Origin: Kaistia sp.
Lineage (GTDB): Bacteria > Pseudomonadota > Alphaproteobacteria > Rhizobiales > Kaistiaceae
NCBI GenBank assembly: GCA_965229085.1
Contig: OZ245859.1
Span: 1,140,207 to 1,204,206 of the forward strand
Direction of reading: 5' to 3'
DNA: 64,000 nt
The position numbers and the translations under genes were made by a program. The notes beneath the pieces are model-generated. The model ran no database searches. It was given only the letters and a program-made list of their open reading frames with translations, and was not told the origin of the DNA. Below, piece by piece: positions 9,810 to 47,868 of the stretch (the first letter of the stretch is position 1; every line of letters begins with the position of its first letter).

Positions 9810-10586
9810 TCAGCCCGGTGCGTGATCACCCGCAACGAAGAGGGGGATGCCTGACGATGCGAGGGCGTCAGCGACAGCGGCGTCGGGGGCGCTGCCGGTG
9901 ACGATGCCGTCGAACCGGTCGAGCGTTGCAAGGTGATAGAGCGCCGAGCGACCGAACTTGCCATGATCGACGAGGAGATATTTGCGGGTTGCCGAGGCGA
10001 TCATCAACCGCTTGATCTGCAACACCTCCTGATCCTGATGGTAGGCGGACAGGCCAAGGATCGAGGATGAGGAAATGAACGCGACATCGGCCCGCAAGCC
10101 GCGCAGCGTCTCCTCGGCCAGGAGACCGAAAAAGCCGTTGAAGCGTTCGCTGTACTGGCCGCCCAGCGTGATCAGCGTGATGCCGAGCTGCCCCGCCAGC
10201 GCCTGCATCACGGTCATGTTGTTGGTGATGACGGTCAGCGGCCGCATCCCCGCCAGATGCCGCGCGAGGCTGCCGGTCGTGGAGCCGTCATCAATCAACA
10301 CCGTCTGGCCGGGCTCGGTGAAGCGCATCGCGAATGTGGCGATGCGCGCCTTTTCCTCGGCTGCCAGGGTCGTGCGATAGCGGTAGTCGCTCTCGAAATT
10401 CGCGCTGGCCTCAATGGTGGCGCCGCCGCGAATCCGGCGCAGCAGGCCCGCGCCCTCAAGATCTTCGAGATCGCGGTGGACCGTCATCTTCGAGACCTGA
10501 AATTCCGCCGCCAGCGCCTCGATCGTCACCGACCCCTTGGCCATCAACTGGTTGACGATCATCTGACGCCGGGCGTCCTGTCTCAT
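9810..10586 (-). CDS. DeoR/GlpR family regulator (EryR-like position)
   Basis: VSKMTVHRDLEDLE HTH; IDDGSTT; VITN; LGG; divergent from tpiB/eryH-eryI. Confidence 0.9.
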   Translation of the reverse strand: MRQDARRQMIVNQLMAKGSVTIEALAAEFQVSKMTVHRDLEDLEGAGLLRRIRGGATIEASANFESDYRYRTTLAAEEKARIATFAMRFTEPGQTVLIDDGSTTGSLARHLAGMRPLTVITNNMTVMQALAGQLGITLITLGGQYSERFNGFFGLLAEETLRGLRADVAFISSSSILGLSAYHQDQEVLQIKRLMIASATRKYLLVDHGKFGRSALYHLATLDRFDGIVTGSAPDAAVADALASSGIPLFVAGDHAPG

Positions 10587-10857
10587 GGCTGGCTCGCTGC
10601 TCAATTCAACACGTCACTCTACCGTTGTTGATCCACTTATCTGCAATCCCGTCATCGAGCCATGTCGGGCCTGACAGTCCGCGCCGCACGCCGCCAGCGC
10701 TAGGATGGAGACGGAGACGTTCCAAAAGATCGCTTCATGATCACCGCGTGGGACGCGCGGCCAAGATAACATCACTTCATCACAATCTCACACGAAACGG
10801 CTTGATATTGGGATCGTCGATGTTAGGTTCTCGTCGCTCGCTATAGGGGGACCGACA

Positions 10858-11628
10858 ATGGGCGATGCTGCTGAGGTTTGGATCGGCACCAGTTGGAAGA
10901 TGAACAAGACGCTGGCCGAGGCGAAGGCTTTCGCGGCTGGCCTTGTGGCGTCCGAAGCAAGTCGCGACCAACGGATCCAGCGTTTCGTCATTCCCCCGTT
11001 CACCGCCGTGCGCGAGGTGAAGAGCCTCTTGTCCGATACGTCGGTGAAGGTCGGCGCGCAGACCATGCATTGGGATGATCGCGGCGCATGGACCGGCGAG
11101 ATTTCGCCCCTCATGCTGAGGGATTGCGGCCTTGATATCGTCGAGCTCGGCCACTCCGAACGGCGCGAGCATTTCGGCGAGACGGACCGCACGGTCGGCC
11201 TGAAGACGGAAGCGGCCGTCCGCCACGGTCTCGTGCCGCTGATCTGCATCGGCGAGACACTTGCCGAGCGGGAAGCCGGCCGCGCCAGTGAGGTGCTGGA
11301 CCGGCAGGTGCGCGCTGCGCTCGGGCTTCTCACGGGCGAACAGCAATCAGCCCCGGTGCTTCTTGCCTATGAGCCGGTCTGGGCGATCGGCGAGCACGGC
11401 ATTCCCGCGACATCGGACTATGCCGACGCTCGGCAGGCCGAAATCATCGCGGTCGCCAGGGATGTGCTCGGCCGCCACGTAAGCTGCCTCTATGGCGGAT
11501 CGGTCAATCCGGGCAATTGCCGGGAACTCATCGCCTGTCCGCATATCGACGGCCTCTTCATCGGCCGCTCGGCCTGGGATGTCGCCGGCTATCTCGCCAT
11601 TCTCGACGCATGTTCAACCACCATCTGA
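10858..11628 (+). CDS. eryH: Triosephosphate isomerase-like L-erythrulose-1-phosphate isomerase (EryH/TpiB type)
   Basis: [11 protein letters not shown] (TpiB-type N-terminus), [21 protein letters not shown]; co-transcribed with RpiB. Confidence 0.8.
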
Positions 11629-11638
11629 GGAATTTGCC

Positions 11639-12094
11639 ATGAAGATCGCCGTTGCCGGAGACAGCGCAGGAGAAGGCCTCTCCAAGATCATCGCCGACCA
11701 TCTCAAGGGACGCTTCGATGTATCCGAGGTGTCGAACACAGAGGCAGGTCCCGACCCGTTCTATGCAGATCTCGCCGACCGCGTCGCCTCGGGTGTGCTC
11801 GACGGGACCTATGACAAGGCGATCCTGATCTGCGGCACCGGGATCGGCGTCTCGATTTCGGCCAACAAGGTGCCCGGAATTCGCGCCGCCCTGACGCATG
11901 ACACCTATTCGGCGGAGCGTGCGGCGCTGTCCAACAATGCGCAGATCATCACCATGGGCGCGCGCGTCATCGGCTCGGAGCTCGCCAAGGCGATCGCCGA
12001 CGCCTTCCTCGCGCAAACCTTCGATGAAAAAGGCCGCTCGGCCGGCAATGTCGATGCGATCAACGCGGTCGACGCCAAATACAACGCCCGCTGA
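11639..12094 (+). CDS. eryI: RpiB/LacAB family isomerase (D-erythrulose-4-phosphate isomerase EryI/DerI type)
   Basis: [49 protein letters not shown], closely matching the Brucella/rhizobial EryI pattern as recalled. Confidence 0.82.
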
Positions 12095-12206: not shown

Positions 12207-13196
12207 TCAAGCCTCAGCCAGCAGTTGGCGGGCTGTATCGACGTCGGTCACCAGATCGGTCGGATAGCCGCCCTTCAACGCCGCCGAGATCGCGGCGATC
12301 TTGCGGGCTCCGCCGGCGACGCAGAGGCGATAGGGAATCGACTTCAGTTCGTCGAGCGCGATACCGACCATTCGATCCTGAATTCCGCCTGACACCGGGC
12401 GTCCGTCCGCATCAATGAACCGGCCGATGATGGCGGCAACCGCGCCATTGGCGACGAACGAATCGATCGTCGCGTTGTCGAGCAATTCCGCCTGGCGCAC
12501 CGTCGCCTGCGGGCCAAGGTCGCCCACGCCGAACAGGATGCGATTGGCCGATCGGACAATCGAAAACTGCCTGCTGATGGCCGGCTCGGCCAGGAGCTGA
12601 TCGCGCAGCAACGCTGTCGACAGGATCGCCGGAGCCATCAAGTTGACGCATCGCGCGGCAATGCGGTTGGCCAGCAGCGAAGAGCAAAGCTCTGGCGAAA
12701 ACGCGGTGGAGAGGCCAGTCGCCGACCCCGCCACCTGCACCACCGTCAGCGGACTGACCGGAGCCGTCAACGAGATCGCCCGCGCTGCCTCGAGCACCGT
12801 TCGGCCCCAGGCAACGCCGATGACATCGCCGGCCGATACATGATCGGCCAGGACCAGCGCAGCCGCCTCGCCCAAGCGACGCTCAAGCGCCTCGCCGTCC
12901 ATCGTCGGAATGACGATGGCGGATTCAAGTCCAAACCGCCGGACCAATGCCCGTGAGAGCTGCGCTCGGCTGGCAACGACTGTGTTGATGCGTATCGAGA
13001 CGATGCCTCGGCTCCGCGCCTCTTGCAGCATCTTGATAATCGTCACTCTGGATACGCCGATGATCTGTGCAATCTCGTTCTGCGTCAGCTCATCGACATA
13101 ATACATCCAGGCCGCCCACACGGTCGCATCTTCAAACTCAACCGGAATGCTTGCTGCGGCTGTCGATTGCGGCTGGTTGTGGTTGGCGGTGTCCAT
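12207..13196 (-). CDS. SorC/DeoR sugar-binding transcriptional regulator #1
   Basis: WAAWMYYVDELTQNEIA HTH; GVAWGRT; VAGGARKIAAISAALKGG; LVTD. Confidence 0.92.
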   Translation of the reverse strand: MDTANHNQPQSTAAASIPVEFEDATVWAAWMYYVDELTQNEIAQIIGVSRVTIIKMLQEARSRGIVSIRINTVVASRAQLSRALVRRFGLESAIVIPTMDGEALERRLGEAAALVLADHVSAGDVIGVAWGRTVLEAARAISLTAPVSPLTVVQVAGSATGLSTAFSPELCSSLLANRIAARCVNLMAPAILSTALLRDQLLAEPAISRQFSIVRSANRILFGVGDLGPQATVRQAELLDNATIDSFVANGAVAAIIGRFIDADGRPVSGGIQDRMVGIALDELKSIPYRLCVAGGARKIAAISAALKGGYPTDLVTDVDTARQLLAEA

Positions 13197-13250
13197 GAAC
13201 GAGTTCTCATCAAACTCGCCGCATGTGTCAAGCAAGGTCCAATCGGCGTA

Positions 13251-13278
13251 TTGACATATGTCGCGACACAGTTATCAT
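13251..13278 (+). promoter_or_regulatory. Putative sigma70 promoter overlapped by palindromic operator
   Basis: TTGACA(13251-13256)-16 bp-TATCAT(13273-13278); perfect palindrome GACATATGTC at 13253-13262. Confidence 0.6.
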
Positions 13279-13307: not shown

Positions 13308-14654
13308 ATGCAGGACGGCGCCGTGGCGACGCGAGACGCGCAGCAGGGATGGACGGCGTTGATCGACGACATCGTCGCTGGTCGCTGGATCAATCCCGAG
13401 ACTGGCCGCGCCGCGACCGTCCCCTATGAATCGATCGTGTTTGAGGTTTCGCTCGAAGGCCGCGAGGCCGATCTCGTGCAGTCGATGCGGCTCGGCTCGT
13501 CCCTCGCCGTCGTTTGCGACGAAGCCACCTATGAGGCCATGGGGCGGCGGGTGGCGACGGCCGTTGGCGCGCTCGGCCCTGTCAAGACGCTGGTCCTCGA
13601 CCATCCGCATGCAGATCTCGCCACAGTCGACGTGCTGAAGGAGAAGCTTGCCGGCGTCGAGGGCGTGATCGCGGTCGGCTCCGGAACGCTCAACGACCTC
13701 TGCAAATATGTGACCTACCAGGACGGCCGGCGATACTGCGTCTTCGGCACGGCCGGTTCGATGAACGGCTATACGTCGACGACGGCGTCCATGACGCTGG
13801 AGTCGGGGTTGAAGGTCTCGCTGCCGGCACATGCCCCGCGCGGCTTCTTCGTCGATCTCTCGGTCTCGGCCGCGGCCCCTGCTTTTCTCAACGCCGCCGG
13901 ATTTGGTGACTGCCTGGCGCGATCCGTCGCGCAGGTCGACTGGTGGATGTCGCACAGGCTGCTCGGGACGGACTATCTGCACGCGCCCTTCCTCATTCAG
14001 GAGAAGGACGAGGCGATCCTCAACAGCATGGCCGCGGCGCTGCGCGGCGGCGACATCGCGGCCGTCGCCTATCTCTATCGGGTACTGACCCTCTGCGGTC
14101 TCGGCGTTTCCCTGACGGGCGTCTCCAATCACGGTTCGATGGGTGAGCACCAGATTTCGCATTACATCGACTGCTTCGCCGGCGAGCGCCATCCAGGCAC
14201 CTTGCACGGCCAGCAGGTCGGCGTCGCCTCGCTGTCCATGGCGCGCCTGCAGCAGCGGATGCTCGCGAGTGACGCCCCGCCCAGGATCGGCGCGACTGAG
14301 ATCGACCAGGACGACATGATCAGGCGGATGGGTCCGAAGATCGCCCCGCAATGCCTCGCCGAATGGCAGCGCAAGGCCTTCGATGCAGCCGGAGCGGACG
14401 CACTGAATGCGCGCCTTGAGGCCATCTGGCCCGAATTGCGCGAGGAGCTTCAGGCCTTCGTGATCCCGGCGGCAGAGATGGAGCAGTTGCTGAGGGATGC
14501 CGGCGGGCCGACGACGGCGGCGGAACTCGGCGTTCCCCAGGACCTCTATCGCGAAGCGATCGTGCATAGCCGCGAAATGCGCAACCGCTTCTCGTTCCTC
14601 GATCTTGCCGCCGACGCTGGCGATCTCGAAGCGTTTGCGGCCGGCGAAGTCTGA
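13308..14654 (+). CDS. sn-glycerol-1-phosphate dehydrogenase-like (EgsA/AraM family) polyol-phosphate dehydrogenase
   Basis: AVGSGTLNDLCKY, GTAGSMNGYTS, GFGD, GEHQISH, LHGQQVG metal ligands. Confidence 0.8.
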   Translation: MQDGAVATRDAQQGWTALIDDIVAGRWINPETGRAATVPYESIVFEVSLEGREADLVQSMRLGSSLAVVCDEATYEAMGRRVATAVGALGPVKTLVLDHPHADLATVDVLKEKLAGVEGVIAVGSGTLNDLCKYVTYQDGRRYCVFGTAGSMNGYTSTTASMTLESGLKVSLPAHAPRGFFVDLSVSAAAPAFLNAAGFGDCLARSVAQVDWWMSHRLLGTDYLHAPFLIQEKDEAILNSMAAALRGGDIAAVAYLYRVLTLCGLGVSLTGVSNHGSMGEHQISHYIDCFAGERHPGTLHGQQVGVASLSMARLQQRMLASDAPPRIGATEIDQDDMIRRMGPKIAPQCLAEWQRKAFDAAGADALNARLEAIWPELREELQAFVIPAAEMEQLLRDAGGPTTAAELGVPQDLYREAIVHSREMRNRFSFLDLAADAGDLEAFAAGEV

Positions 14655-14682
14655 TTTCCTCGATCCAGCAAGGCGCGACGTC

Positions 14683-16239
14683 ATGAGCGCAGTCTATGAC
14701 CTGGCCATTATCGGCGGCGGCATCAACGGTTGCGGCATCGCACGCGATGCCGCCGGCCGGGGCCTGCACGTGCTGCTGGCCGAACAGTCGGATCTCGGAT
14801 CGGCGACCTCCTCCGCGTCCACCAAGCTTATCCATGGCGGGCTGCGCTATCTCGAGCATTACGAGTTCAAGCTGGTCCGGCATGCGCTGACGGAGCGCGA
14901 GCGGCTTTGGCAGATCGCGCCGCACATCATCTGGCCGCTGCGTTTCGTCCTGCCCTACCGCGACACTCTGCGGCCGGCCTGGCTGCTCCGATTGGGGCTG
15001 TTTCTCTACGACCACATTGGCGGCCGCAAACGCCTGCCAGCCTCGCGCACGCTGCGCCTGTCCGGATCGCCGCTGGGCGCGCCGCTGCGCGGCGACATCA
15101 CGCTCGGCTTCGAATATTCCGACTGCTGGGTGCAGGACAATCGCCTGGTGGTGCTGAATGCCCGCGATGCCGCCGATCGGGGCGCCGATATTCGTGTGCG
15201 AACCGAATGCGTCGGCGCGCGTCGGGTCGGCGCACTCTGGGAAGTCGATCTCGTCGATCGCCAGACGGGCAAGGCCTCGACGATCACCGCCCGCGTGCTG
15301 GTCAATGCCGCCGGACCCTGGGTCGACCGCGTCGCCAAGATCGCAGTGGGACCCTCCGCGCGCGCTTCCATCCGTCTTGTGCAGGGCTCGCATATCGTCG
15401 TGCCGCGGCTCGCGAACCACGATCGCTGCTACATTTTCCAGAACGCCGACAAGCGCATCGTCTTCGCCATTCCCTACGAGGCGGACTTCACGCTGATCGG
15501 CACAACCGACCGCGACTTCAAGGGAGACCTCGACCGCGTGGCGGCATCCGAGGAGGAGATTGCCTATCTCTGTGCCTCGGCGAGCGACTACTTCAAGGCC
15601 CCGGTGCGGCGCGAGGACGTGACATGGAGCTATTCCGGCGTCCGCCCGCTCTATGATGACGGCGCCGCGGCCGCGCAGGAAGCGACGCGCGACTATGTGC
15701 TGAAGCTCGAGGCCGAGCCTGGACAAGCGCCGCTTCTCAGCATTTTCGGCGGCAAGATCACGACCTATCGCTGCCTCGCGGAAGACGTGCTCGCCAAGCT
15801 CGCCGCGATCCTTCCGGAAGCCGGACGGCATGTCGGCTGGACCGCGACGCAGCCGCTGCCAGGCGGGAATTTCCCGATCGATGGCGCGGGCAATCTCGCG
15901 GAGGCGCTGAAGCGCGCGCACCCATTCCTGACCGACGCGCAGGCGGAACGGTTTGTCCGCCACTACGGCACGCTCAGTCACCGCATTCTCGGCAAGGCCG
16001 AAACCGCCACCGATCTCGGCCGGGACTTCGGCGGCGGACTGAGCGCGGCCGAGGTCGACTATCTGATGCAAAGCGAATTTGCCCGAACCGCCGAAGATGT
16101 CGTCTGGCGGCGGACAAAGTCGGGGCTGCGCATGAGCGCGGAGGAAATTGCGGCGCTCGATGGCTGGATGAGGGCGCACGCCATCACCGGGGACGCGCCG
16201 ACGCAGCACGCAGAGACAAGACGGCGGGCGATCGCCTGA
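14683..16239 (+). CDS. glpD: FAD-dependent glycerol-3-phosphate dehydrogenase (GlpD family)
   Basis: IIGGGINGCGIARDAAGRG, SSASTKLIHGGLRYLE, SYSGVRPL, GGKITTYR, DVVWRRTK. Confidence 0.85.
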   Translation: MSAVYDLAIIGGGINGCGIARDAAGRGLHVLLAEQSDLGSATSSASTKLIHGGLRYLEHYEFKLVRHALTERERLWQIAPHIIWPLRFVLPYRDTLRPAWLLRLGLFLYDHIGGRKRLPASRTLRLSGSPLGAPLRGDITLGFEYSDCWVQDNRLVVLNARDAADRGADIRVRTECVGARRVGALWEVDLVDRQTGKASTITARVLVNAAGPWVDRVAKIAVGPSARASIRLVQGSHIVVPRLANHDRCYIFQNADKRIVFAIPYEADFTLIGTTDRDFKGDLDRVAASEEEIAYLCASASDYFKAPVRREDVTWSYSGVRPLYDDGAAAAQEATRDYVLKLEAEPGQAPLLSIFGGKITTYRCLAEDVLAKLAAILPEAGRHVGWTATQPLPGGNFPIDGAGNLAEALKRAHPFLTDAQAERFVRHYGTLSHRILGKAETATDLGRDFGGGLSAAEVDYLMQSEFARTAEDVVWRRTKSGLRMSAEEIAALDGWMRAHAITGDAPTQHAETRRRAIA

Positions 16240-16317
16240 GGAGGCTTTTGCTCAACAAGAAGAACGACAAACGCGGACCAGAAACCGCCAGTCGACCTGA
16301 TCGGGAGGAACGTTCAG

Positions 16318-25342: not shown

Positions 25343-25343
25343 C

Positions 25344-41221: not shown

Positions 41222-42220
41222 TCAGAAAGGATACTTGGAGAAGTCGTCCTTGCCGACATCGACCCAGGCCTGACCCTGGATCAGGATGCCCTTGCCGGGT
41301 CCCTTGGTGACCTTGACGGCATTGTAGCCGGGAACGCCGAGATCCATTCCGTCAGTGATCGGCTTGCCGTCGAGCACCATCTTGGAGACGACGTTCATGA
41401 CGTAGCCGGCGTCCTTCGGATCCCAGAAATAGATCCGGTTGACCGCGCCCGACTTCAGGTAAGGACCGCTGTCCTTGGGCAGACCGAGGCCATAGACGCA
41501 GATCTTGCCCTGAAGGCCGGCTTCCTCGACCGCACGGCCGATGCCGATCACGTCGATGGCCGACGAGCCCTGGAAGCCCTTGATGTCGGGATGCAGGCGC
41601 AGGATTTCCTTGGCCTTCTCATAGGCGCGGTTCGCGTCGTTGAACGACTCGTTCTTCGCCGAAACCAGTTCCATCTCAGGATACTGCTTGGCGTTTTCCG
41701 CGCCGGCATCGACCCACTGGTTATGCGTCAGGCTGCCGAGCGAGCCGACGAACGTCGTCCACTTGCCCTTCTTGCCCATGCATTCTGCGAGGCCCTCGTT
41801 GATGCGGCGGCCGAAGGCTGCGTTGTCGAAAGCCTCGATGTCGGCGTCCGCATTGACGATCGTGCTGCCTTCATGCGCGATGACCTTGATGCCGCGCTGC
41901 TGTGCACGACGCAAAACGCCTTCAAGCGCCGAGGGGTCCATCGGAACGACTGCGATCGCCGAAACGTCGCGCGCCACGAGGTCCTCGATGATACGCGACT
42001 GCTGCGCCGCATCAGCCTTGGCCGGTCCGATCTGGCTGACCGAGAGCTCGGGATTGTCCTTGCCGAAGGCGTCGACGCCCTCGTTCATGCGGATGAACCA
42101 GTTCTCACCGGTAACCTTCACGACGGTCGTGATATTCGGCTTGTCAGCGGCCGCAGCCGCGCCGGTCGCCAGGATTCCCATCAGGGCAACGCTGCCTGCC
42201 AGTCTCGCGATCAGACTCAT
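41222..42220 (-). CDS. CUT2 substrate-binding protein of the LsrB/RhaS-like clade
   Basis: VVKVTGENWF, ADAAQQ, HNQW, FWDPKDAG. Confidence 0.85.
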   Translation of the reverse strand: MSLIARLAGSVALMGILATGAAAAADKPNITTVVKVTGENWFIRMNEGVDAFGKDNPELSVSQIGPAKADAAQQSRIIEDLVARDVSAIAVVPMDPSALEGVLRRAQQRGIKVIAHEGSTIVNADADIEAFDNAAFGRRINEGLAECMGKKGKWTTFVGSLGSLTHNQWVDAGAENAKQYPEMELVSAKNESFNDANRAYEKAKEILRLHPDIKGFQGSSAIDVIGIGRAVEEAGLQGKICVYGLGLPKDSGPYLKSGAVNRIYFWDPKDAGYVMNVVSKMVLDGKPITDGMDLGVPGYNAVKVTKGPGKGILIQGQAWVDVGKDDFSKYPF

Positions 42221-42291
42221 GTCTCACTCCTCCAGTGTCTTGAACACTTCTTGGTCCATCCCGCGCGTCACCCCTTCAGGGGGCGCGCTTC

Positions 42292-43275
42292 TTAGCGCCT
42301 GGCACGAAGCCAGGGCGTAAGATCCACTCGCGCCGACGCCAGAAGGGCGAGCAGCAGCGCACCCCAGGCCAGGTCGCGGAAAAAGTTCGAAATCTGCATG
42401 AAGTTGAAAAGGCTCGAGAGCGTCTGCAGCGCAGTCGCCGCCAGGAGCACGCACAGCACCTTGCCGTAGCCGCCCTCGGGCTTAACCCCGCCAAGCACGG
42501 CGATCAGGATGGCGATCAGCACATAGGAGCTGCCGTAATCCCATTTCACCGACGAGTTGCGCGAGGCGATCACGACCCCTGCGATCGAGGCGAGCACGCC
42601 GCAGATCGTATAGGTGACGATGATCATCCGCCGCTCCGAGATCCCGCCATAGCGAGCGGCTTTGGCGTTGCTGCCCAGAAGCATGAGCTTCACGCCAAAG
42701 GGCGTGTATTTCAGCAGGAACCCCAGCAGCGCCGCAATCACGACAAACAGCGTGAAGCAGAGCGGAACGCCGAGAACCGGCAGGTTGCCGAAGTCGTCGA
42801 GCGGCGGGATGTAGCCCATGCTTACCGCGGAGCCGTTTGTCAGGAAGACGGCGATGCCGGTGAACAGAAGCTGGGTTCCCAGCGTCGCGATGAGCGGCGT
42901 CAATCCCGCCAACGAAATCACGATCCCGTTGATGAGCCCGCCGACCAGTCCGACAGCGAGCGCAATGCCCGCGAAGGTCCAGGCGAACAGCATCGGCGAA
43001 GCGTCCGGCGCGATCATCGACTTGGTCAGGAGGAAGGCGACGATCCCGGCGAGATTCGCGAGGGCGATGCCCGAAAGGTCAATGCCGCCATTGCCTGAGA
43101 TCATCGCCAGCGTCACGCCCAGCGCCAGCAGTCCGAGCTCAGGCACCTGCGCCGCCATCGACTGCAGGTTGTAGCTGTCAATGAAGTTGTGCCCGGCAAG
43201 CACGGCACCTGCCACAAGCACGACGACATTGATCGACGCCAGGAACAGCGTCTGGCGATCAAAAGCAGATGACAC
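42292..43275 (-). CDS. CUT2 sugar ABC permease (GTG start)
   Basis: GGAGG RBS before GTG 43275; GGIDLS, TPFG...LGSNAKAARYGG, AVLGG. Confidence 0.85.
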   Translation of the reverse strand: MSSAFDRQTLFLASINVVVLVAGAVLAGHNFIDSYNLQSMAAQVPELGLLALGVTLAMISGNGGIDLSGIALANLAGIVAFLLTKSMIAPDASPMLFAWTFAGIALAVGLVGGLINGIVISLAGLTPLIATLGTQLLFTGIAVFLTNGSAVSMGYIPPLDDFGNLPVLGVPLCFTLFVVIAALLGFLLKYTPFGVKLMLLGSNAKAARYGGISERRMIIVTYTICGVLASIAGVVIASRNSSVKWDYGSSYVLIAILIAVLGGVKPEGGYGKVLCVLLAATALQTLSSLFNFMQISNFFRDLAWGALLLALLASARVDLTPWLRARR

Positions 43276-43337
43276 TTCAATCCTCCCGAGCGACCAGGCG
43301 TTGCCACCCGGTCGTTTCCGTATTTCGCCGCGAACAG

Positions 43338-43369
43338 TGTCAATTGTCAATGATAATTGACGTATGTCA
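43338..43369. promoter_or_regulatory. Putative SorC-family operator/promoter
   Basis: TGTCAATTGTCA (identical 12-mer to the 36449 repeat arm) and TTGACGTATGTCA. Confidence 0.6.
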
Positions 43370-43394
43370 CCATTCGCCTTGAGCCCATCCTCAG

Positions 43395-45455
43395 TCAGGC
43401 CCCCGGCCCCAGAACCGTCACGGCGGGCGACCGGCAGGGGTGGTGGAGCAAAGAGGTCAGTTCGTCGTCCAGATGCAGCAGGGTGAGCGACACCCCCTCC
43501 ATATCGAGGGACGTGTAGTAGGGGCCGACAAGGCTCGCATCGACGATGAGGCCATGCGCCTTCAGGCGCTGCCGGACCCGACGGTGCAGGATGTAGAGTT
43601 CCATGGCCGGTGTGCCGCCGAGCGAGTTCACCAGCACTGCGACGCGGTCGCCATGCACCGGCTTCATTTCGGCAAGGATTCGGTCGAGCAGCAGATCGGC
43701 ACAGTCGTCGGCCGAAGCGAGCGCCCGGCGCACCACACCGGGCTCGCCATGCACGCCAACGCCAAGTTCCATGTCTTCGGGACCAAGTTCGAAACTGGGC
43801 CGACGCGTATCCAGAAGGCGCGCCGGCTCGAGAGCGAGGCCCATCGTGTAGGTGCGTGAGGCGGCGCGCCGGGTGATGAACTCGCACGCCTCCAGGCTCA
43901 GCATCCGGTCGGCCGCCGCCCCGGCAATCTTGAAGACGAAGATGTTCCCCGCCACGCCCCGTCGCGAGGCCCGTGATTCCAGAGGGGCTGAAGCGATGTC
44001 GTCGATGGTGACGATCTGGCGAACGCGCAGGCCTTCGGCCTCGGCGATCTCGGCGGCCATCTCGAAGTTCATGACGTCGCCGGAGAAGTTGCCATAGATA
44101 TAGAGCAGCCCTGCCCCGCCGTTCACGGCGCGACTTGCGGCCAGGATGGGCCCGGGCGGGGGCGCCGCGAAGATGTTCCCCACGGCCGCCGCGTCCGCAA
44201 GCCCACGGCCGACGAAGCCCCAGAAGCCCGGCTCGTGGCCTGATCCGCCGCCGATCACGATGCCCACCTTGCCGGGCCGGGGTGCGGCCGCCGCCATCAC
44301 CGCGCGCGGCGAGCCGGGCACAGGAACAATCAACGACTCATGCGCGAGAAGCGCGCCGGCGAGGCATTCGTCCACGGCGTCCTGCGGCGCATTGATCAGC
44401 TTCTTGGCGTGGCTCCGCGCCATGGCCGGCAAGGAAGACGGCGCCTCCGCGCGCCGCAGCGGCTCGATCCAGCCCTCGGCGTTCAGGATGCCCCGGCCGG
44501 TCGCCGTATCCGTCACCAGCACATTCACATGCTTGGCCCGAAGCGCGGCGAGGATCGCGGCGATCTTGTCGATACCGCCGGCAACGGCGATGCGCTGCGG
44601 AATCCGGCGGAGCATCTCGAGGTCGAGACCGATCGTCCGGTCATGCAGCGGCCCCATGACCGGCTCGCCACGCGCCGAAATGAAGCGCCCGACAATGCTG
44701 CCAACGGCGGCATGGTAATAGGAATGCTGGTCGACGCCGTCGAGAAAGCCACTTGTGTGGATCGTGCTTTCCGGGCGCAGCGATGAGATGCCCATGACGA
44801 TCCGGTCCGCCTCGGCCAGGATCGCCATCTGTTCCGCGAGGACAGGCTCGCGCAGCAGCATTTCGCGCATCTCGGGCGAGGACACGATGGCCGGAGCCGA
44901 GAGCGGAATGCACCGCGCCGTCAAGGCCTCGGCGAGACGCGAGGCGCAGGCTTCCGGCGTCCATGGGATACGCGCCGTCGTCCCGCCAGTCGCCTGGACC
45001 ACGCGCAGATCGGCCAATCCAGGATGGTCTAGGGCATCGGCCAGAGCCAGAACCGTCCGGCCCCAGGTCACGGCGATGGTGTCGCCAGGCCGGACGAAGC
45101 TCTTGAGGACCTGTGCCCCTGCCGCCCCCAGCCGTGCGATCAGCGGGCGGTCGCCACCGTCGGTCGGAATGACGAGACAATCCTGCAGGCCGAAGTGGCC
45201 CTTCAGCGCCTGAGCGATGGAAAGCTCGCGAAAGCGATCCGGAGCAATCTCGATATTGACGATGCCACGGATGCGGGCGTCGGCGAGATAGGTGTTCACC
45301 GAGGCGCGGGAAAGGCCCATCTTCTCGGCGATCTCGCCCTGCGTCAGGCCTTCCTCGTAATAGAGCCAGGCAGCCCACAGCAAGGTGTCGTCGCCAAACC
45401 GCAAGGGCATGGCGACCGTCGCGTCGCTTTCGGACTTCTGTGGTTGGCGCGCCAT
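43395..45455 (-). CDS. SorC-family regulator fused to a C-terminal DhaK domain
   Basis: One uninterrupted 687-aa frame: WAAWLYYEEGLTQGEIA...VAGG...LVTD, then KKLINAP...GGGSGHEP...NFSGD...GVHGEPG. Confidence 0.9.
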   Translation of the reverse strand: MARQPQKSESDATVAMPLRFGDDTLLWAAWLYYEEGLTQGEIAEKMGLSRASVNTYLADARIRGIVNIEIAPDRFRELSIAQALKGHFGLQDCLVIPTDGGDRPLIARLGAAGAQVLKSFVRPGDTIAVTWGRTVLALADALDHPGLADLRVVQATGGTTARIPWTPEACASRLAEALTARCIPLSAPAIVSSPEMREMLLREPVLAEQMAILAEADRIVMGISSLRPESTIHTSGFLDGVDQHSYYHAAVGSIVGRFISARGEPVMGPLHDRTIGLDLEMLRRIPQRIAVAGGIDKIAAILAALRAKHVNVLVTDTATGRGILNAEGWIEPLRRAEAPSSLPAMARSHAKKLINAPQDAVDECLAGALLAHESLIVPVPGSPRAVMAAAAPRPGKVGIVIGGGSGHEPGFWGFVGRGLADAAAVGNIFAAPPPGPILAASRAVNGGAGLLYIYGNFSGDVMNFEMAAEIAEAEGLRVRQIVTIDDIASAPLESRASRRGVAGNIFVFKIAGAAADRMLSLEACEFITRRAASRTYTMGLALEPARLLDTRRPSFELGPEDMELGVGVHGEPGVVRRALASADDCADLLLDRILAEMKPVHGDRVAVLVNSLGGTPAMELYILHRRVRQRLKAHGLIVDASLVGPYYTSLDMEGVSLTLLHLDDELTSLLHHPCRSPAVTVLGPGA

Positions 45456-46114
45456 CACAGCGCCGCCCGTTCGCGTCGCTGCATCGCATCACGCAAGGCA
45501 GCGATGATGATCGTCGCCGAGGCAGCGCCGGGATCGACATGGCCGAGCGTGCGCTGCCCGAGGCGCGCGGCGCGCCCGACGGATGCGACCATGGCCCGCG
45601 TCGCCTCGCGCCCCTCTTCCGCCGCGAGCAAGGCTGCATCGAGGCAGGCAAGCGGACCCAATCCCTCTGCCTGCGCCTGCTGTACTGCCCACGCCGCGGG
45701 CGACCAGACATCGAGCATGGTCTTGTCGCCGGGCTGCGCCTTGCCCCGCTGGCGGATGCCTTCTTCGAAGGCGGGAATGAGGTCCGGGATGGATTCAGCG
45801 GCTATGTCGCGCTGGCCGGCAAACAACTGGCCCGCCCGCATGAACGCGCTTGCATAGAGCGGACCCGTGGTCGCGCCGACGGCACCGAGAAAGGACTGCG
45901 CTGCAACCGGGAAAAGATCGCCTGCCGCAGCCCCGCTCATGGCGGCAGCAGAACTGGCGCGAACCACGGCGGCGAAACCTTCGGCCATCGAGTTGCCGTG
46001 ATCGGCATCCCCGATGACCCCATCGAGCACGCCGAGCTCGGTTCGCGCCTCCGTCAACCTGGCGGCGATGGCGCGAAACAAGTCCGTAATCTGATCCGCA
46101 TTCAAGCGCGCCAT
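45455..46114 (-). CDS. dhaL: Stand-alone DhaL (DAK2) subunit
   Basis: LDGVIGDADHG, GPLY, GDKTMLD, GRAARLG, DPGA. Confidence 0.88.
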   Translation of the reverse strand: MARLNADQITDLFRAIAARLTEARTELGVLDGVIGDADHGNSMAEGFAAVVRASSAAAMSGAAAGDLFPVAAQSFLGAVGATTGPLYASAFMRAGQLFAGQRDIAAESIPDLIPAFEEGIRQRGKAQPGDKTMLDVWSPAAWAVQQAQAEGLGPLACLDAALLAAEEGREATRAMVASVGRAARLGQRTLGHVDPGAASATIIIAALRDAMQRRERAAL

Positions 46115-46128
46115 GGCGATGGCTCCCC

Positions 46129-47868
46129 TCAGGACAGACGCTTCTCGAACGCGTCGCCCAGCGTCACGAGGATGAGGCAGCATGAGGTGGCGCCGGCGTC
46201 CGGAACGCCGCGCGACCGCTCGCCGAGACGGCTCGCCCGGCCTACCCTGGCCACGAGATCGACGGTGCTGTCGCGTCCCTGTTCGGCCGCCAGACGCATC
46301 GCCTGCAGCGCCGCAGCGAAGCCTTGCGACTTCGTCGCGTCGAAGGCCGCCACGGCTGGCACAAGCGTATCGATCAGCGTCTTGTCGCCGACATTGGCCG
46401 AGCCGGTGCGGCGGACGCCTGCAAGGCCTGCGTTCAAAAGCGCCGAGAAGCCATCCGCGTCGACAGCGCTGTGACCTGCGATGGCAGTCGCCATCTCCTG
46501 GAACATGAAGCCGTAGAGCGGCCCCATCGATCCGCCGATTTCCGACATCAGGACGTCCGACAGCACGCTGAGCGCCTGGTCGAGGCTGAGGTCCTTGCCC
46601 TCGATCCGCTCGGCAGCGCGGCCAAACCCCTTGGCCATGTTGATCCCGTGGTCGCCATCGCCGATCAACCCATCGATTTCCGACAGATGCGCCTTGTTGG
46701 CGACGATCACCGCTGCCAGCTCGGCGACAATGGCGTGCGACCCGGCATTGCGCACCGAAGGGCCGTTGATCACCACATCAGTTGCAACGGCCGACTGTGC
46801 CCCGTGATGCGAAACCCGGGTCTTGCGCACACCGGCTTCAGCCGCATCGCCCACGGGCGCAGCAACCGTTCCGGTCGTCAAGCCCGGCGCCAGCGCCTCG
46901 AGATCGAGGAGAGCCTTCGTCTCCTCGTCGAGAGCAATAACGGTCAAGGTCGCGCCGACCATCTCCAGCGAGGTGAAGTAGTTGCCGACGAACGCCTTAT
47001 GGACACGCATTCCCCGCGCCTCGAGCCCCGTCTCGATCCGGTCATAGAGCACATAGAGTTCGTTGACCGGCGTCGCTCCGAGGCCCGAAAGGAGAACCGC
47101 GACTTCGGTCCCCGGCGCCAGACCATGATCATCCATGACAATGGCCAACATGTCGTCGGCCACAGCGTCCGCGCTCTTCAGCGCCTCAACCCGCGTGCCG
47201 GGCTCACCGTGATGGCCGATACCGACCTCCATGGTTCCCGGCGCGATCTGGAAATTCGGATGGCCAACGCCCGGCAGCGTGCAGGGACCAAGGCCGACGC
47301 CGACCGAGCGGCAGGCGTCGATCGCCTTCTGCGCCGCGGCCTTCACTTCGGCGAGCGAACCACCTTGCGCGGCCTTGGCACCGCCGATCTTCCACATGAA
47401 GATCTCGCCCGCGACGCCGCGCCTTTTGGCGCGCTCAGCGGGGGATGCGGAACAAACATCATCATTGGCAACAACGGTCGCGACCTCGATACCGTCAGCG
47501 GCGACCATCTCGGCCGCCATCTTCACGTTCATGTTGTCGCCGGCATAATTGCCATAGAGCACCGCGACGCCGGCGCCGCCATCGGCGGCCCGGATCGCAT
47601 CGGCGAAGCTCTTCGCGGTCGGCGAGGAAAACAGCTCCCCCACGGCCACGGCATCGACGAGATTGCGGCCGGTATAGCCGATGAAGGCCGGCTCATGACC
47701 CGATCCACCGCCGGTCACAATCCCGACGCGGCCCGTACGCGGCGCCGCCGTCGACACCACAACCCGCGGGTTCGTGGGGTCAAGCCGAACGAGGTCCCGG
47801 TGGGCCTTGACGAAGCCGGCTACGGTCTCGTCGACCAGATCGTCCGGATCATTGATGAACCGCTGCAT
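46129..47868 (-). CDS. Fused DhaK-DhaL ketose kinase #2
   Basis: GGGSGHEP, NYAGD, GHHGEPG; GDGDHG, GDKTLID, GRASRLG, DAGA. Confidence 0.9.
   Translation of the reverse strand: MQRFINDPDDLVDETVAGFVKAHRDLVRLDPTNPRVVVSTAAPRTGRVGIVTGGGSGHEPAFIGYTGRNLVDAVAVGELFSSPTAKSFADAIRAADGGAGVAVLYGNYAGDNMNVKMAAEMVAADGIEVATVVANDDVCSASPAERAKRRGVAGEIFMWKIGGAKAAQGGSLAEVKAAAQKAIDACRSVGVGLGPCTLPGVGHPNFQIAPGTMEVGIGHHGEPGTRVEALKSADAVADDMLAIVMDDHGLAPGTEVAVLLSGLGATPVNELYVLYDRIETGLEARGMRVHKAFVGNYFTSLEMVGATLTVIALDEETKALLDLEALAPGLTTGTVAAPVGDAAEAGVRKTRVSHHGAQSAVATDVVINGPSVRNAGSHAIVAELAAVIVANKAHLSEIDGLIGDGDHGINMAKGFGRAAERIEGKDLSLDQALSVLSDVLMSEIGGSMGPLYGFMFQEMATAIAGHSAVDADGFSALLNAGLAGVRRTGSANVGDKTLIDTLVPAVAAFDATKSQGFAAALQAMRLAAEQGRDSTVDLVARVGRASRLGERSRGVPDAGATSCCLILVTLGDAFEKRLS

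Follow-up and report, generated by a model that had tools for sequence, protein, structure and literature searches.

A cluster of sugar-utilization genes spans ~38 kb (positions 9810-47868), or 0.8% of the 4.76-Mb genome, in the 64,000-nt stretch of Kaistia sp. DNA analyzed here (the window). Pfam and NCBIfam models identified three ABC importers (one CUT1 and two CUT2), FGGY and PfkB kinases, two fused DhaK-DhaL kinases, a separate DhaL accompanied by a DhaK domain, three glycerol-phosphate-dehydrogenase folds (Fe-ADH_2/G1PDH-like, FAD GlpD, and NAD GpsA-like), two Aldolase_II-SDR fusions, and four SorC modules (Table 1). The gene content listed in the initial annotation is present, except that its "split" DhaK and fourth SorC regulator form a single 687-aa ORF. 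The 38 kb contain three of the four DAK gene sets, two of the three aldolase-SDR genes, and four of the five detectable SorC modules of the genome, a concentration that exceeds chance. The region had been described as one super-locus; it is rather a mosaic of five mobile modules, each separately conserved in other genera: eryR/eryH-eryI; an ABC importer with DhaKL_1 and SorC_b; the DAK trio (DhaKL_2, DhaL, and SorC::DhaK); operon X (importer, PfkB kinase, SorC_c, and aldolase-SDR_2); and cassette Y (polyol-type importer, FGGY kinase, G1PDH-like enzyme, HAD phosphatase, aldolase-SDR_1, and SorC_a, with GlpD, an SDR, and the GpsA-like enzyme as variable extras).

Table 1. Features of the cluster, with positions in the window.
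Feature	Position	Strand	Basis or remark
EryR-like regulator, DeoR family	9810-10604	-	Pfam HTH_DeoR + DeoRC; divergent from eryH
EryH / LerI-type second triose-phosphate-isomerase paralogue	10858-11628	+	Pfam TIM
EryI / DerI, RpiB-family D-erythrulose-4-P isomerase	11639-12094	+	NF051858, 252.1 bits (cut-off 240)
SorC_a, cassette Y regulator	12207-13196	-	Pfam Sugar-bind + HTH
Cassette Y enzymes and importer	13308-27477	+	Pfam, NCBIfam
G1PDH-like	13308-14654	+	Pfam/NCBIfam
GlpD	14683-16239	+	Pfam/NCBIfam
SDR	16318-17043	+	Pfam/NCBIfam
Aldolase-SDR_1	17149-19197	+	Pfam/NCBIfam
SBP1, polyol-type SBP	19553-20923	+	Pfam/NCBIfam
Permeases	21140-22072 and 22072-22941	+	Pfam/NCBIfam
FGGY kinase	22938-24482	+	Pfam/NCBIfam
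HAD-IIB	24479-25342	+	Pfam/NCBIfam
ATPase	25344-26435	+	Pfam/NCBIfam
GpsA-like	26428-27477	+	Pfam/NCBIfam
SorC_b, regulator of SBP2-DhaKL_1 operon	27696-28655	+	Pfam
Predicted erythrulose uptake and kinase operon	28688-34078	-	Pfam
DhaKL_1, fused DhaK-DhaL kinase	28688-30466	-	Pfam
Permease of SBP2 importer	30561-31598	-	Pfam
ATPase of SBP2 importer	31516-33021	-	Pfam
SBP2	33134-34078	-	Pfam
Aldolase_II-SDR_2, apparently monocistronic	34360-36411	-	NF006192, 992 bits
29-nt perfect inverted repeat, candidate SorC_c operator	36449-36512	.	Repeat search; between aldolase-SDR_2 and SorC_c
SorC_c, operon X regulator	36575-37537 (start 36563 or 36575)	+	Pfam
Operon X importer and kinase	37534-43275	-	Pfam
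PfkB kinase	37534-38490	-	Pfam
perm3b	38517-39545	-	Pfam
ATPase of operon X	39542-41161	-	Pfam
SBP3	41222-42220	-	Pfam
perm3a	42292-43275	-	Pfam
DAK trio	43395-47874	-	Pfam, NCBIfam
SorC::DhaK fusion, one 687-aa ORF	43395-45458	-	Pfam, NCBIfam
DhaL, separate	45455-46114	-	Pfam, NCBIfam
DhaKL_2, fused DhaK-DhaL kinase	46129-47874	-	Pfam, NCBIfam

EryH is 72-81% identical to the eryH products of 80 loci, 61 of which present EryC alongside, and 35.5% identical to the product of the housekeeping tpiA found elsewhere in the genome. The EryR-like protein shares 46-61% identity with the DeoR gene preceding eryH in other genomes. EryI, whose ATG start at position 11639 is preceded by a GAGGAA ribosome-binding site, is the sole RpiB, as no second copy was detected in the genome. 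These comparisons support the earlier assignment: judged by sequence, EryH and EryI are true orthologues, and EryH is predicted to convert L-erythrulose-1-P into D-erythrulose-4-P. The lack of EryA, EryB, and EryC noted at the locus holds genome-wide: a tblastn search with Shinella EryC against the whole genome returned zero matches at E<=1e-3, the top EryA match was 29% identical, and two GlpD paralogues match EryB at 51% and 54% identity, whereas true EryB orthologues of other genera share 66-91% identity. The motif SSASTKLIHGG reported in the GlpD of the locus was confirmed, as was its counterpart SSRSGKLVHGG in Shinella EryB.

The SBP2-ATPase2-perm2-DhaKL_1 unit is kept in 10 genera, and SorC_b lies beside DhaKL_1 orthologues in 9-10 genera with 51-69% identity. 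The same is observed in a Cohaesibacter locus (L118), where the module is contiguous with SorC_b, eryH, eryI, and a transketolase gene and contains no dehydrogenase. For nine of the 10 module orthologues, eryH/eryI were absent within 10 kb, and the two closest (L244 and L270) have an extra EryC-like TIM-barrel gene that is absent from this genome. DhaKL_1 retains the motifs GGGSGHEP, GDVMNF, and HGEPG, and the catalytic motifs are intact in all four DhaK domains; the fused kinases fall only in the generic PRK14479 subfamily of NCBIfam. In the SorC::DhaK fusion, HTH and Sugar-bind domains cover residues 32-326 and Dak1 covers residues 368-679. Full-length orthologues of this fusion were found in 21 fetched loci, 19 of which contain DhaKL_2.

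The DAK genes are recurrently linked to eryH/eryI. Either isomerase gene was found within 10 kb of DhaKL_1 relatives in 30 of 79 loci (both genes in 27), and DAK genes lie within the same distance of eryH/eryI in 19 of 80 eryH loci. The DAK-TIM-RpiB trio recurs in two further, more distant Firmicute loci, and DhaKL_2 or SorC::DhaK adjoins eryH/eryI, or RpiB alone, in other loci (L010, L012, L014, L022, L023, L094, L096, L103, L113, L114, L136, L146, L160, L238, and L242). The sister species G053 keeps DhaKL_2, DhaL, the SorC::DhaK fusion, and EryI and is devoid of DhaKL_1, SorC_b, SBP2, EryH, and EryR. The adjacency in 30 of 79 loci and the gene pattern of G053 suggest that erythrulose kinases of the DAK family most likely supply EryH/EryI with substrate, in line with the kinases to which the initial annotation had pointed. 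A canonical PTS-type dhaKLM is present elsewhere in the genome, so that dihydroxyacetone is already covered. The route from kinase to EryH/EryI had been presented as undescribed, which it is not. The roles of LerK, LerI, DerI, and EryC have been described (PMC10733421), the LerK/DerK-LerI-DerI logic is known from Mycobacterium smegmatis and from D-apionate route 3 (PMC10733421; PMC13753588), and a 2026 paper presents separately located EryH-EryI as a "metabolic funnel", LerK-EryH-EryI (PMC13753588). We propose that the same known logic applies to EryH/EryI and the DAK kinases here.

The gene order of operon X is maintained both in its closest loci (Brucella/Ochrobactrum, Shinella, Paracoccus, Rhizobium, and Mesorhizobium; 72-86% identity) and in Ensifer-type loci (63-76% identity). 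SorC_c sits between PfkB and aldolase-SDR_2 in operon X loci; among the closest of these (L164-L184) its identity is 64-75%, and the regulator at this position in Ensifer-type loci scores best as SorC_a (55-58%). Aldolase-SDR_2, followed past its stop by a GC-rich hairpin (~34296-34320), is 77-81% identical across operon X loci and 69% identical to aldolase-SDR_1; it scores 474 against the RhaD model TIGR02632, under the cut-off of 567.75. A third paralogue, 32% identical, belongs to the true rha locus of the genome. Of 80 aldolase-SDR loci, 34 contain PfkB. AauA (9I1M), which binds D-ribulose, is a relative of SBP3 (172 bits); its Lys, Trp, Glu, and His contacts to the ligand are conserved in SBP3, and two other contacts differ. 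The cassette Y set was found in >40 loci of Rhizobium, Ensifer, Agrobacterium, Mesorhizobium, Acetobacteraceae, and Rhodobacterales, in which SorC_a is conserved and divergent from the G1PDH-like gene. Among solved structures, SBP1 is closest to 5iai and to 4rya, an entry that carries the label "Sorbitol". Our search of the literature found no description of operon X or cassette Y, both of which are widespread.

SorC_a and SorC_c are 50% identical, and ATATGTCAA boxes were found in four promoter regions, a count matched in only 2 of 100 shuffles; they include positions 13223 and 13251 in the intergenic region by SorC_a and 48055 upstream of the DAK trio. The motifs TTGACnnnTGTCA / TGTCAATTGT, related to the 29-nt repeat, occur in the same intergenic region of other genera, and a comparable site (43337-43372) precedes perm3a. 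An 18-bp perfect palindrome (34183-34200) precedes the SBP2-DhaKL_1 operon. The paralogous SorC_a, SorC_c, and SorC part of the fusion, with their similar candidate boxes, may link cassette Y, operon X, and the DAK trio.

The explanation that we favor, with moderate confidence, is an accessory carbohydrate island of five modules and ten transcription units that would drain into two sinks, erythrose-4-P and DHAP. The substrates and reactions assigned to it are all predictions. The SBP2 importer would bring in erythrulose in its free form, or else a ketose very similar to it, the ATP-type kinase DhaKL_1 would yield L-erythrulose-1-P, EryH (LerI type) would convert it into D-erythrulose-4-P, and EryI (DerI type) would produce erythrose-4-P. 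DhaKL_2 may also phosphorylate erythrulose, with D-erythrulose-4-P as the probable product, in which case EryI alone would be needed; DhaL and SorC::DhaK would probably form a substrate-sensing autoregulator partnering DhaKL_2. EryA, EryB, and EryC would be dispensable because of this erythrulose-kinase bypass. In operon X, a small ketose would enter through a ketofuranose-type binding protein and be turned by PfkB into a ketose-1-P, which aldolase-SDR_2 would cleave into DHAP and a short aldehyde, then oxidized as in RhaEW. In cassette Y, polyol import followed by the FGGY kinase and the G1PDH-like dehydrogenase would lead to a similar ketose-1-P, cut by aldolase-SDR_1; the roles of HAD-IIB, the G1PDH-like enzyme, GlpD, and the GpsA-like enzyme are guesses. 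Cleavage of ketose-1-phosphates to DHAP is the more likely function of the aldolase-SDR modules, which should end in DHAP and an oxidized aldehyde by precedent of the RhaEW family, biochemically an aldolase with an NAD-dependent aldehyde dehydrogenase (PMC3870299). Several observations fit this scheme poorly. EryI directly neighbors SorC_a in this genome, in G053, and in several further cassette Y loci, an adjacency that has no place in it. That no tetritol dehydrogenase of EltD or DthD type was recognized counts against it, as do the absence of eryH/eryI within 10 kb of most SBP2-DhaKL_1 orthologues, the EryC-like gene of L244 and L270, the generic NCBIfam placement of the kinases, and the fact that free erythrulose is, to our knowledge, not a well-known environmental sugar.

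Alternatively, it is possible, although unlikely, that cassette Y represents an EryA/EryB-like tetritol-phosphate route, in which the FGGY kinase and GlpD, the G1PDH-like, or the GpsA-like dehydrogenase would yield erythrulose-1-P and all modules would converge on L-erythrulose-1-P before EryH/EryI, as first proposed. The FGGY kinase, GlpD, SorC, and CUT1 importer share families with EryA, EryB, EryD, and EryEFG, SBP1 is polyol-type, and cassette Y lies by eryI or eryH here and in G053, L003, L194, L201, and L215. However, the EryB-type product D-erythrulose-1-P requires EryC, absent here, and GlpD carries a G3P-type motif, is nearer to the other GlpD of the genome (63%) than to EryB (51%), and is missing from cassette Y in G053, which has the cassette without EryH, and in many other loci. 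Cassette Y is invariably accompanied by an aldolase-SDR, an argument for C-C cleavage over isomerization. We found no tie to L-erythrulose-1-P for either aldolase-SDR module, for FGGY and PfkB, or for any of the three glycerol-phosphate-type dehydrogenases: operon X and cassette Y each stand alone in most genomes, and four genomes without EryI carry aldolase-SDR (cassette Y in G040, G045, and G046; only SorC_c and aldolase-SDR_2 in G025). A fifth, G044, has cassette Y and only a generic RpiB.

A fructolysis-like scheme modelled on ketohexokinase, aldolase B, and triokinase of the liver appears improbable as well. PfkB or FGGY would yield a ketohexose-1-P, the aldolase would release DHAP and glyceraldehyde (or dihydroxyacetone would arise via glycerol), and the DAK enzymes would be triose kinases, with EryH/EryI as unrelated neighbors. 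Glyceraldehyde is a common DAK substrate, the three dehydrogenases and FGGY kinase of cassette Y could recycle glycerol, PfkB adjoins SorC::DhaK in L216 and L018, and the DAK trio and operon X are direct neighbors in this genome and in G053, as well as in loci of Shinella, Ochrobactrum, and Paracoccus (L170, L171, L173, L179, and L181). Yet the DAK trio occurs in only six of 80 aldolase-SDR loci, to be set against the 30 of 79 loci with eryH/eryI, the Cohaesibacter locus combines a DAK kinase with EryH, EryI, and transketolase without an aldolase, oxidation of the aldehyde by the RhaEW-family fused SDR would leave no free triose, and the genome already has DhaKLM. We also give little credence to a coincidental pile-up of unrelated accessory sugar operons in a variable chromosome region, whose neighborhood would be metabolically meaningless. 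Every module is solitary in most genomes, the locus occurs in only one of 20 congeners, in reduced form, and the two congeners differ in the order and content of their modules; against this, adjacency pairs recur in unrelated genera (DAK-eryHI, DAK-operon X, and cassette Y-RpiB or -DAK), the modules share paralogues and an operator-like box, and DhaKL_1 and EryH were lost jointly in G053.

Our results suggest that the erythrulose part of the island is most likely an already described kind of route, independent of EryA, EryB, and EryC, and that the locus most likely enables this soil alphaproteobacterium to utilize the C4 sugar erythrulose and, through operon X and cassette Y, small ketoses and sugar alcohols.

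The region contains 30 genes (9810-47874), as established by GC3-guided gene calling with Pfam and NCBIfam scans. They encode one CUT1 and two CUT2 ABC importers, two fused DhaK-DhaL kinases (DhaKL_1 and DhaKL_2), one FGGY and one PfkB kinase, and a separate DhaL. The other enzymes are a G1PDH-like Fe-ADH_2 protein, GlpD, a GpsA-like protein, an SDR, a HAD-IIB phosphatase and two Aldolase_II-SDR fusions. Three SorC regulators are free-standing and a fourth is fused to DhaK in a single 687-aa ORF (SorC::DhaK). The inventory of the initial annotation stands as listed, except that its 'split DhaK' and 'fourth SorC' are this one polypeptide.

We mapped modules by comparing the window proteins by tblastn with 322 loci around relatives of SorC::DhaK, EryH, aldolase-SDR_2 and DhaKL_1. 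The region is a mosaic of five conserved modules: (a) eryR and the eryH-eryI pair; (b) the importer-kinase operon SBP2-ATPase2-perm2-DhaKL_1 with the regulator SorC_b; (c) the DAK trio of DhaKL_2, DhaL and SorC::DhaK; (d) operon X, comprising perm3a-SBP3-ATPase3-perm3b-PfkB, SorC_c and aldolase-SDR_2; and (e) cassette Y. The nearest named matches are in Rhizobiaceae and Rhodobacterales (55-81% amino-acid identity). Synteny in 80 loci shows that aldolase-SDR_2 does not belong to the SBP2-DhaKL_1 operon, nor PfkB to the DAK trio; aldolase-SDR_2 is set apart from the SBP2 operon by a GC-rich hairpin 3' of its stop codon, an 18-bp palindrome and a gap of 285 bp. Only one of 20 congeners (G053, L323-L325) carries the locus, in a reduced form that retains DhaKL_2, DhaL, SorC::DhaK, operon X, eryI and cassette Y minus GlpD and SDR, without eryH, eryR, SBP2, DhaKL_1 or SorC_b. 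The difference between the two species is therefore one of gain or loss of whole modules. The aldolase-SDR_2 gene of G053 adjoins the GpsA-like end of cassette Y.

Coordinates of genes, candidate sites and comparison loci (positions in the window unless a genome or locus prefix is given)
Feature	Position	Strand	Remark
Generic SDR gene	9051-9779	+	convergent with eryR, ends 31 bp from eryR end
eryR	9810-10604	-	DeoR family
eryH	10858-11628		TIM family
eryI	11639-12094		RpiB family
Half-sites upstream of cassette Y	13223-13262		related to inverted-repeat half-site
DhaKL_1	28688-30466		fused DhaK-DhaL
Palindrome TGTATTTTCGAAAATACA	34183-34200		18 bp, perfect, AT-rich
Inverted repeat	36449-36512		29 nt, perfect, 6-nt spacer
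Half-site upstream of perm3a	43337-43372		recurrence of inverted-repeat half-site
SorC::DhaK	43395-45458	-	687-aa fusion
DhaL	45455-46114		stop overlaps SorC::DhaK start
DhaKL_2	46129-47874		fused DhaK-DhaL
Half-sites upstream of DAK trio	48046-48063		related to inverted-repeat half-site
dhaK-dhaL set elsewhere in genome	C1:1429557-1433989		with EIIA-like and HPr-like ORFs
rha-type locus elsewhere in genome	C1:4287850-4297223		with aldolase-SDR_3
Reduced locus of congener	G053:C3:240563-267651		L323-L325
Transketolase, Cohaesibacter celericrescens	L118:11543-13612		directly 3' of eryI
Extra TIM-barrel gene, Pseudaminobacter soli	L244:9073-9939		in SBP2-DhaKL_1 operon orthologue

EryH and EryI are orthologous to those of the Brucella and rhizobial eryABCD-eryR-eryH-eryI locus, and a DeoR regulator is adjacent in both cases; eryR is divergent here but co-directional there. 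EryI scored 252.1 bits against NF051858 ('D-erythrulose-4-phosphate isomerase', NCBIfam; cut-off 240), and the genome holds no second RpiB. EryH is 72-81% identical to the eryH products of loci in 80 other genomes, canonical ery loci included. It is a second TIM paralogue, 35.5% identical to the housekeeping tpiA product encoded elsewhere in the genome. The DNA of the ery region is ~78% identical to a Shinella locus. The generic SDR gene next to eryR matched no specific NCBIfam equivalog.

As queries against the whole genome, a single 4.76-Mb contig, we used three proteins of the canonical Shinella zoogloeoides locus: the erythritol kinase EryA, the erythritol-phosphate dehydrogenase EryB and the D-erythrulose-1-P 3-epimerase EryC, a xylose-isomerase-like TIM barrel. 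EryC had no tblastn match at E<=1e-3 in the whole genome and was absent from all 20 congeners. The best genome match of EryA is an FGGY kinase with just 29% identity. For EryB, the genome offers two GlpD paralogues, 51% and 54% identical to Shinella EryB; true EryB orthologues from other genera are 66-91% identical to it. Both GlpD paralogues carry SSASTKLIHGG and Shinella EryB carries SSRSGKLVHGG, the EryB-type motif given in the initial annotation, whose claim that EryA, EryB and EryC are absent is borne out by this whole-genome search. EryD, also part of the Brucella and rhizobial locus, is absent from the genome as well. Among the nearest 80 eryH loci, EryC adjoins in 61 and is missing in 19; a DAK gene lies within 10 kb of eryH in 19 of these 80.

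We infer that the known erythrulose-kinase route explains the absence of EryA, EryB and EryC. DhaKL_1 and DhaKL_2 both hold Dak1 and Dak2 in one chain, exceed the cut-off of PRK14479 and retain their catalytic motifs; GGGSGHEP, GDxMNF and HGEPG are present in all four DhaK domains of the genome. The SBP2-ATPase2-perm2-DhaKL_1 operon is kept in ten genera at 58-81% identity, with hosts that include Pseudaminobacter, Shinella, Brucella gallinifaecis, Gemmobacter, Paracoccus, Mesorhizobium and Rhizobium. SorC_b lies beside the operon in nine of them, the exception being B. gallinifaecis, which has no SorC_b within the fetched locus. Among 79 loci seeded with DhaKL_1, eryH or eryI lies within 10 kb in 30 and both do in 27; 10 of those 30 are without EryC. 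Two Firmicutes loci, from Tepidanaerobacter acetatoxydans (L299) and Proteiniclasticum ruminis (L308), have a fused DhaK-DhaL gene beside TIM and RpiB genes, and this trio therefore extends well past Proteobacteria and Actinobacteria. Their DAK genes are 40% identical to DhaKL_1, which is under the identity threshold of the 30/79 count.

The most informative locus is that of Cohaesibacter celericrescens (L118), with the gene order SBP2, ATPase2, perm2, DhaKL_1, SorC_b, eryH, eryI and transketolase, with no dehydrogenase. Such a module without a dehydrogenase suggests free erythrulose as the substrate, and it argues that the importer may take up erythrulose itself or an equally close molecule. 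The locus would make up a complete route, from uptake through phosphorylation and two isomerisations to a consumer of erythrose-4-P. The position of the transketolase gene agrees with erythrose-4-P being the product. The SBP2-DhaKL_1 operon has its two closest orthologues in Pseudaminobacter soli (L244) and Mesorhizobium liriopis (L270). In both, permease and kinase are separated by an additional gene for a xylose-isomerase-like TIM barrel, 26-27% identical to EryC, and this genome has no homologue of it. We found no zinc-ADH gene in the region that could be a tetritol dehydrogenase of the EltD/DthD type, and the SDRs scored 111-123 bits against the GolD/DthD model NF005309 (cut-off 286). There is no DhaM or PTS-domain gene in the region (Pfam). 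Dihydroxyacetone use is probably covered by the dhaK-dhaL set elsewhere in the genome, which is accompanied by EIIA-like and HPr-like ORFs with PTS-type domains judged by eye from translations.

LerK is an L-erythrulose 1-kinase whose product needs LerI/EryH, and DerK is a D-erythrulose 4-kinase whose product needs only DerI/EryI (PMC10733421). G053 keeps DhaKL_2 and EryI without DhaKL_1 and EryH, so that across G053 and this genome DhaKL_1 co-varies with EryH and DhaKL_2, present with EryI alone, would need just EryI. This pattern matches the literature prediction for LerK-type versus DerK-type kinases. EryH-EryI apart from eryABC and served by LerK has been described as a 'metabolic funnel' to erythrose-4-P (2026; PMC13753588). 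The erythrulose-kinase logic has thus already been described (PMC10733421, PMC13753588), and the route into EryH/EryI can no longer be called 'probably undescribed', as the initial annotation had it.

The tetritol pathways of Mycobacterium smegmatis comprise EltD/DthD, LerK, DerK, LerI and DerI (Huang et al. 2015, as presented in PMC10733421). The present locus is similar in its DAK-family ATP-dependent kinases, whose role as erythrulose kinases is putative here and based on gene context, in its LerI- and DerI-type isomerases leading to erythrose-4-P, in the CUT2 ABC importer encoded alongside and in that EryA, EryB and EryC are dispensable. It differs in that no EltD/DthD-type dehydrogenase was recognised and one kinase set includes the SorC::DhaK fusion. 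In the same funnel, D-apionate route 3 consists of ApnO-OiaC-LerK-EryH-EryI and the D-ribonate route of Rib2D-OrnI-DerK (PMC13753588). These routes share with our locus an EryH-EryI pair separate from eryABC and fed by a putative erythrulose kinase. In contrast, Pfam recognised none of their dehydrogenases or decarboxylases in the region, and the kinases here accompany neutral-sugar ABC importers. The erythrulose branch thus seems to belong with the LerK/DerK-LerI-DerI, D-apionate and D-ribonate pathways, with a dedicated importer as a possible difference and free erythrulose as substrate perhaps a second one. We found no literature on an alphaproteobacterial erythrulose importer.

The two aldolase-SDR proteins are 69% identical to each other. 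Pfam found an Aldolase_II N-domain and an SDR C-domain in both, and they scored 1010 (aldolase-SDR_1) and 992 bits (aldolase-SDR_2) against NF006192, a generic bifunctional aldolase/SDR model (cut-off 639). Operon X, in which SorC_c is divergent from perm3a-SBP3-ATPase3-perm3b-PfkB, is collinear in 34 of the 80 aldolase-SDR loci. Identity is 72-86% for its closest counterparts (non-classical Brucella/Ochrobactrum, Shinella, Paracoccus, Rhizobium and Mesorhizobium) and 63-76% for Ensifer-type loci, whose regulator has its best score as SorC_a. From its gene content, operon X looks like a rhamnose locus minus isomerase and mutarotase, with PfkB in place of FGGY; the missing isomerase and mutarotase fit a substrate that is already a ketose. 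The solved relatives of SBP3, its binding protein, are 5bra (254 bits), 3d02 and 9I1M (172 bits). The last is the structure of EHEC AauA in complex with alpha-D-ribulose (K_D 2 uM; bioRxiv 10.1101/2025.02.06.636802). In a HMMER alignment with AauA, Lys37, Trp43, Glu118 and His167 are kept, and two ligand contacts are altered (Glu196->Asn, Ser223->Ala), which makes D-ribulose itself an improbable ligand. We propose that SBP3 may bind a small ketofuranose that is related but not identical to D-ribulose. Operon X would then convert a ketose to its 1-phosphate and cleave this to DHAP and a short aldehyde, which would be oxidised. E. coli uses D-arabinose through the fucose enzymes FucK, FucA and AldA, by which D-ribulose-1-P is cleaved to DHAP and glycolaldehyde and the latter is oxidised to glycolate. 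The logic proposed for operon X is similar, although the kinase and aldolase families differ. The Rbl and Aau D-ribulose importers instead feed ribulose-5-P and not an aldolase (bioRxiv 10.1101/2025.02.06.636802), whereas the importer of operon X is proposed to supply one.

Cassette Y comprises SorC_a, the G1PDH-like protein, HAD-IIB, FGGY, SDR, aldolase-SDR_1 and a CUT1 importer, with GlpD and the GpsA-like protein as variable extras. We located it in over 40 loci, among them one on a plasmid of Rhizobium leguminosarum and one on an At plasmid of Agrobacterium salinitolerans. Its invariant members are the FGGY, G1PDH-like, HAD-IIB, SDR and aldolase-SDR proteins (G053 is missing the SDR). GlpD scored 765 bits against NF008899 (cut-off 360), is 63% identical to the second GlpD of the genome and is dispensable in many cassette Y loci. 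The GpsA-like protein is below the GpsA cut-offs (best NF000942, 138.9 bits; cut-off 257). The closest structures to SBP1, the binding protein of the cassette, are 5iai and 4rya, the latter labelled 'Sorbitol' by its depositors; both were presumably solved with bound polyols, which suggests that the substrate may be a polyol. In the simplest scheme, a polyol would be converted to polyol-1-P, ketose-1-P and then DHAP plus an aldehyde, which would be oxidised to an acid. Any role assigned in this cassette to HAD-IIB, GlpD or the GpsA-like protein is a guess. The eryI gene directly adjoins SorC_a and lies outside the proposed scheme.

SorC::DhaK combines a complete SorC regulator with a DhaK domain that carries GGGSGHEP, GDVMNF and HGEPG. 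The fetched loci include 21 with a full-length orthologue (52-60% identical), of which 19 also have DhaKL_2; they come from Rhizobium, Shinella, Labrys, Tropicimonas, Neorhizobium, Ensifer and Devosiaceae. The congener copy is 90% identical. DhaKL_2 or the fusion adjoins a full ery locus in Ochrobactrum chromiisoli (L114), eryR-eryH-eryI in two loci (L160 and L023) and an EryI-type RpiB alone in others (L010, L012, L014, L022, L238 and L242). Co-occurrence of the DAK trio with EryI (21/21 genomes) is not clearly above a background of 22/26. In five further genomes the trio is immediately next to operon X. In E. coli, DhaR is controlled by DhaK and DhaL, and the DhaQ-DhaS system of Lactococcus likewise couples a DhaK-type protein to a transcription factor. 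As in those systems, a DhaK-type substrate binder and a DhaL nucleotide binder are here coupled to a transcription factor; unlike them, DhaK is covalently joined to a regulator of the SorC repressor type, DhaM is missing from the vicinity and the K domain has all catalytic motifs. SorC::DhaK is an unusual regulator conserved across families.

Among the SorC proteins, SorC_a and SorC_c share 50% identity; the SorC portion of the fusion shares 42-43% with each of them, and SorC_b is more distant. The inverted repeat fills the aldolase-SDR_2/SorC_c intergenic region. Its half-site recurs upstream of perm3a, and related half-sites lie upstream of cassette Y and the DAK trio. The 9-mer ATATGTCAA has exactly four copies in the 64 kb, all in promoter regions: one upstream of cassette Y, two in the inverted repeat and one upstream of the DAK trio. 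One-mismatch copies lie at 13223 and 43357, and the observed count was reached by just 2 of 100 shuffles. Exact ATATGTCAA was found in 1 of 32 operon-X intergenic regions of other genera and is not conserved; a looser TTGACnnnTGTCA / TGTCAATTGT motif is kept at the same intergenic position in other genera. Cassette Y, operon X and the DAK trio may hence be under the control of paralogous repressors that recognise related operators. At the SBP2 operon there is a palindrome unlike this motif, TGTATTTTCGAAAATACA, located ~100 bp upstream of SBP2 and unique in the window, which is a candidate operator for SorC_b.

Several known systems were considered for operon X and cassette Y. RhaEW, the member of this fusion family that has been characterised, cleaves L-rhamnulose-1-P and then oxidises L-lactaldehyde with NAD+ (PMC3870299). 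The aldolase-SDR proteins share the two-domain Aldolase_II-SDR architecture with RhaEW/RhaD over the full length, and the importer of operon X is RhaSTPQ-like with two permeases. We rejected RhaD as their identity: they scored 468.5 and 474.4 bits against the RhaD equivalog TIGR02632, under its cut-off of 567.75, and a rha-type locus lies elsewhere in the genome with a 32% identical paralogue (aldolase-SDR_3), DeoR, a RhaSTPQ-like ABC importer and a 449-aa ORF taken as RhaI (all but aldolase-SDR_3 judged by eye from ORF sizes and N-termini). Unlike the rhamnose locus, neither module has RhaB/RhaK, an isomerase or a mutarotase; PfkB or a XylB-like FGGY serves as the kinase, and the regulator is SorC, not DeoR. 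Among solved structures, the sole match of the aldolase domain is the uncharacterised 3m4r. As a speculative alternative, this domain might be an OtnC/OiaC-like beta-keto-acid decarboxylase that yields erythrulose from pentonates. An Lsr (AI-2) system was rejected for operon X, as SBP3 reaches just 78-84 bits against LsrB structures and LsrK, LsrF and LsrG are absent. The G1PDH-like protein is of the Fe-ADH_2 fold family (closest solved structure 9h4x, 110.9 bits); at 131.6 bits against the EgsA/AraM equivalog NF002022 (cut-off 413), only the fold family applies and orthology to EgsA/AraM was rejected. The glycerol (glp) locus of rhizobia has another gene set and was rejected for cassette Y.

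Little supports the convergence on L-erythrulose-1-P that had been claimed for cassette Y and operon X: some carriers lack EryI, G053 has no EryH and GlpD is dispensable. The EryI-lacking genomes with an aldolase-SDR are G040, G045 and G046 (cassette Y) and G025 (SorC_c and aldolase-SDR_2 only); G044 (cassette Y) has just a generic RpiB. Some linkage of the two modules to RpiB, eryHI or DAK genes is real, cassette Y lying beside RpiB or eryHI in L003, L194, L201, L215 and G053 and beside DAK genes in L195, L201 and L216. We found no paper on either aldolase-SDR module. It is a tentative and rather unlikely proposition that cassette Y and operon X together form an undescribed phosphorylative polyol/ketose cleavage pathway, widespread in alphaproteobacteria, and that SorC::DhaK with DhaL is a one-polypeptide sugar sensor. 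The G1PDH-like enzyme would then oxidise the polyol-1-phosphate made by the FGGY kinase, an activity that to our knowledge has never been assigned to the bacterial G1PDH-like family. The non-rhamnose branch of the RhaEW family would cleave tetrulose-, pentulose- or deoxyketose-1-phosphates, which could include erythrulose-1-P to DHAP and formaldehyde or formate. SorC::DhaK would read the free ketose via the covalent hemiaminal site of DhaK and the phosphate ester via the SorC domain. Operon X and cassette Y are conserved, widespread variants of a kinase-aldolase-aldehyde-dehydrogenase logic; for all modules, the substrates given here are inferred.

Our results suggest that EryH/EryI without EryA, EryB and EryC needs no new pathway, since DAK-type erythrulose kinases with their own importers would feed EryH/EryI. 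Comparative genomics could separate the L-erythrulose-1-kinase type, which co-varies with EryH, from the D-erythrulose-4-kinase type, which goes with EryI only. For enzyme-coupled transcription control, SorC::DhaK offers a compact candidate. Dozens of soil and plant-associated genera carry operon X and cassette Y in highly conserved form, among them Rhizobium, Ensifer, Agrobacterium (At plasmids), Mesorhizobium, non-classical Brucella/Ochrobactrum, Shinella and Paracoccus. Once identified, their substrates would fill gaps in maps of rhizosphere carbon use and would give a function to the large non-rhamnose aldolase-SDR branch and to bacterial G1PDH-like enzymes.
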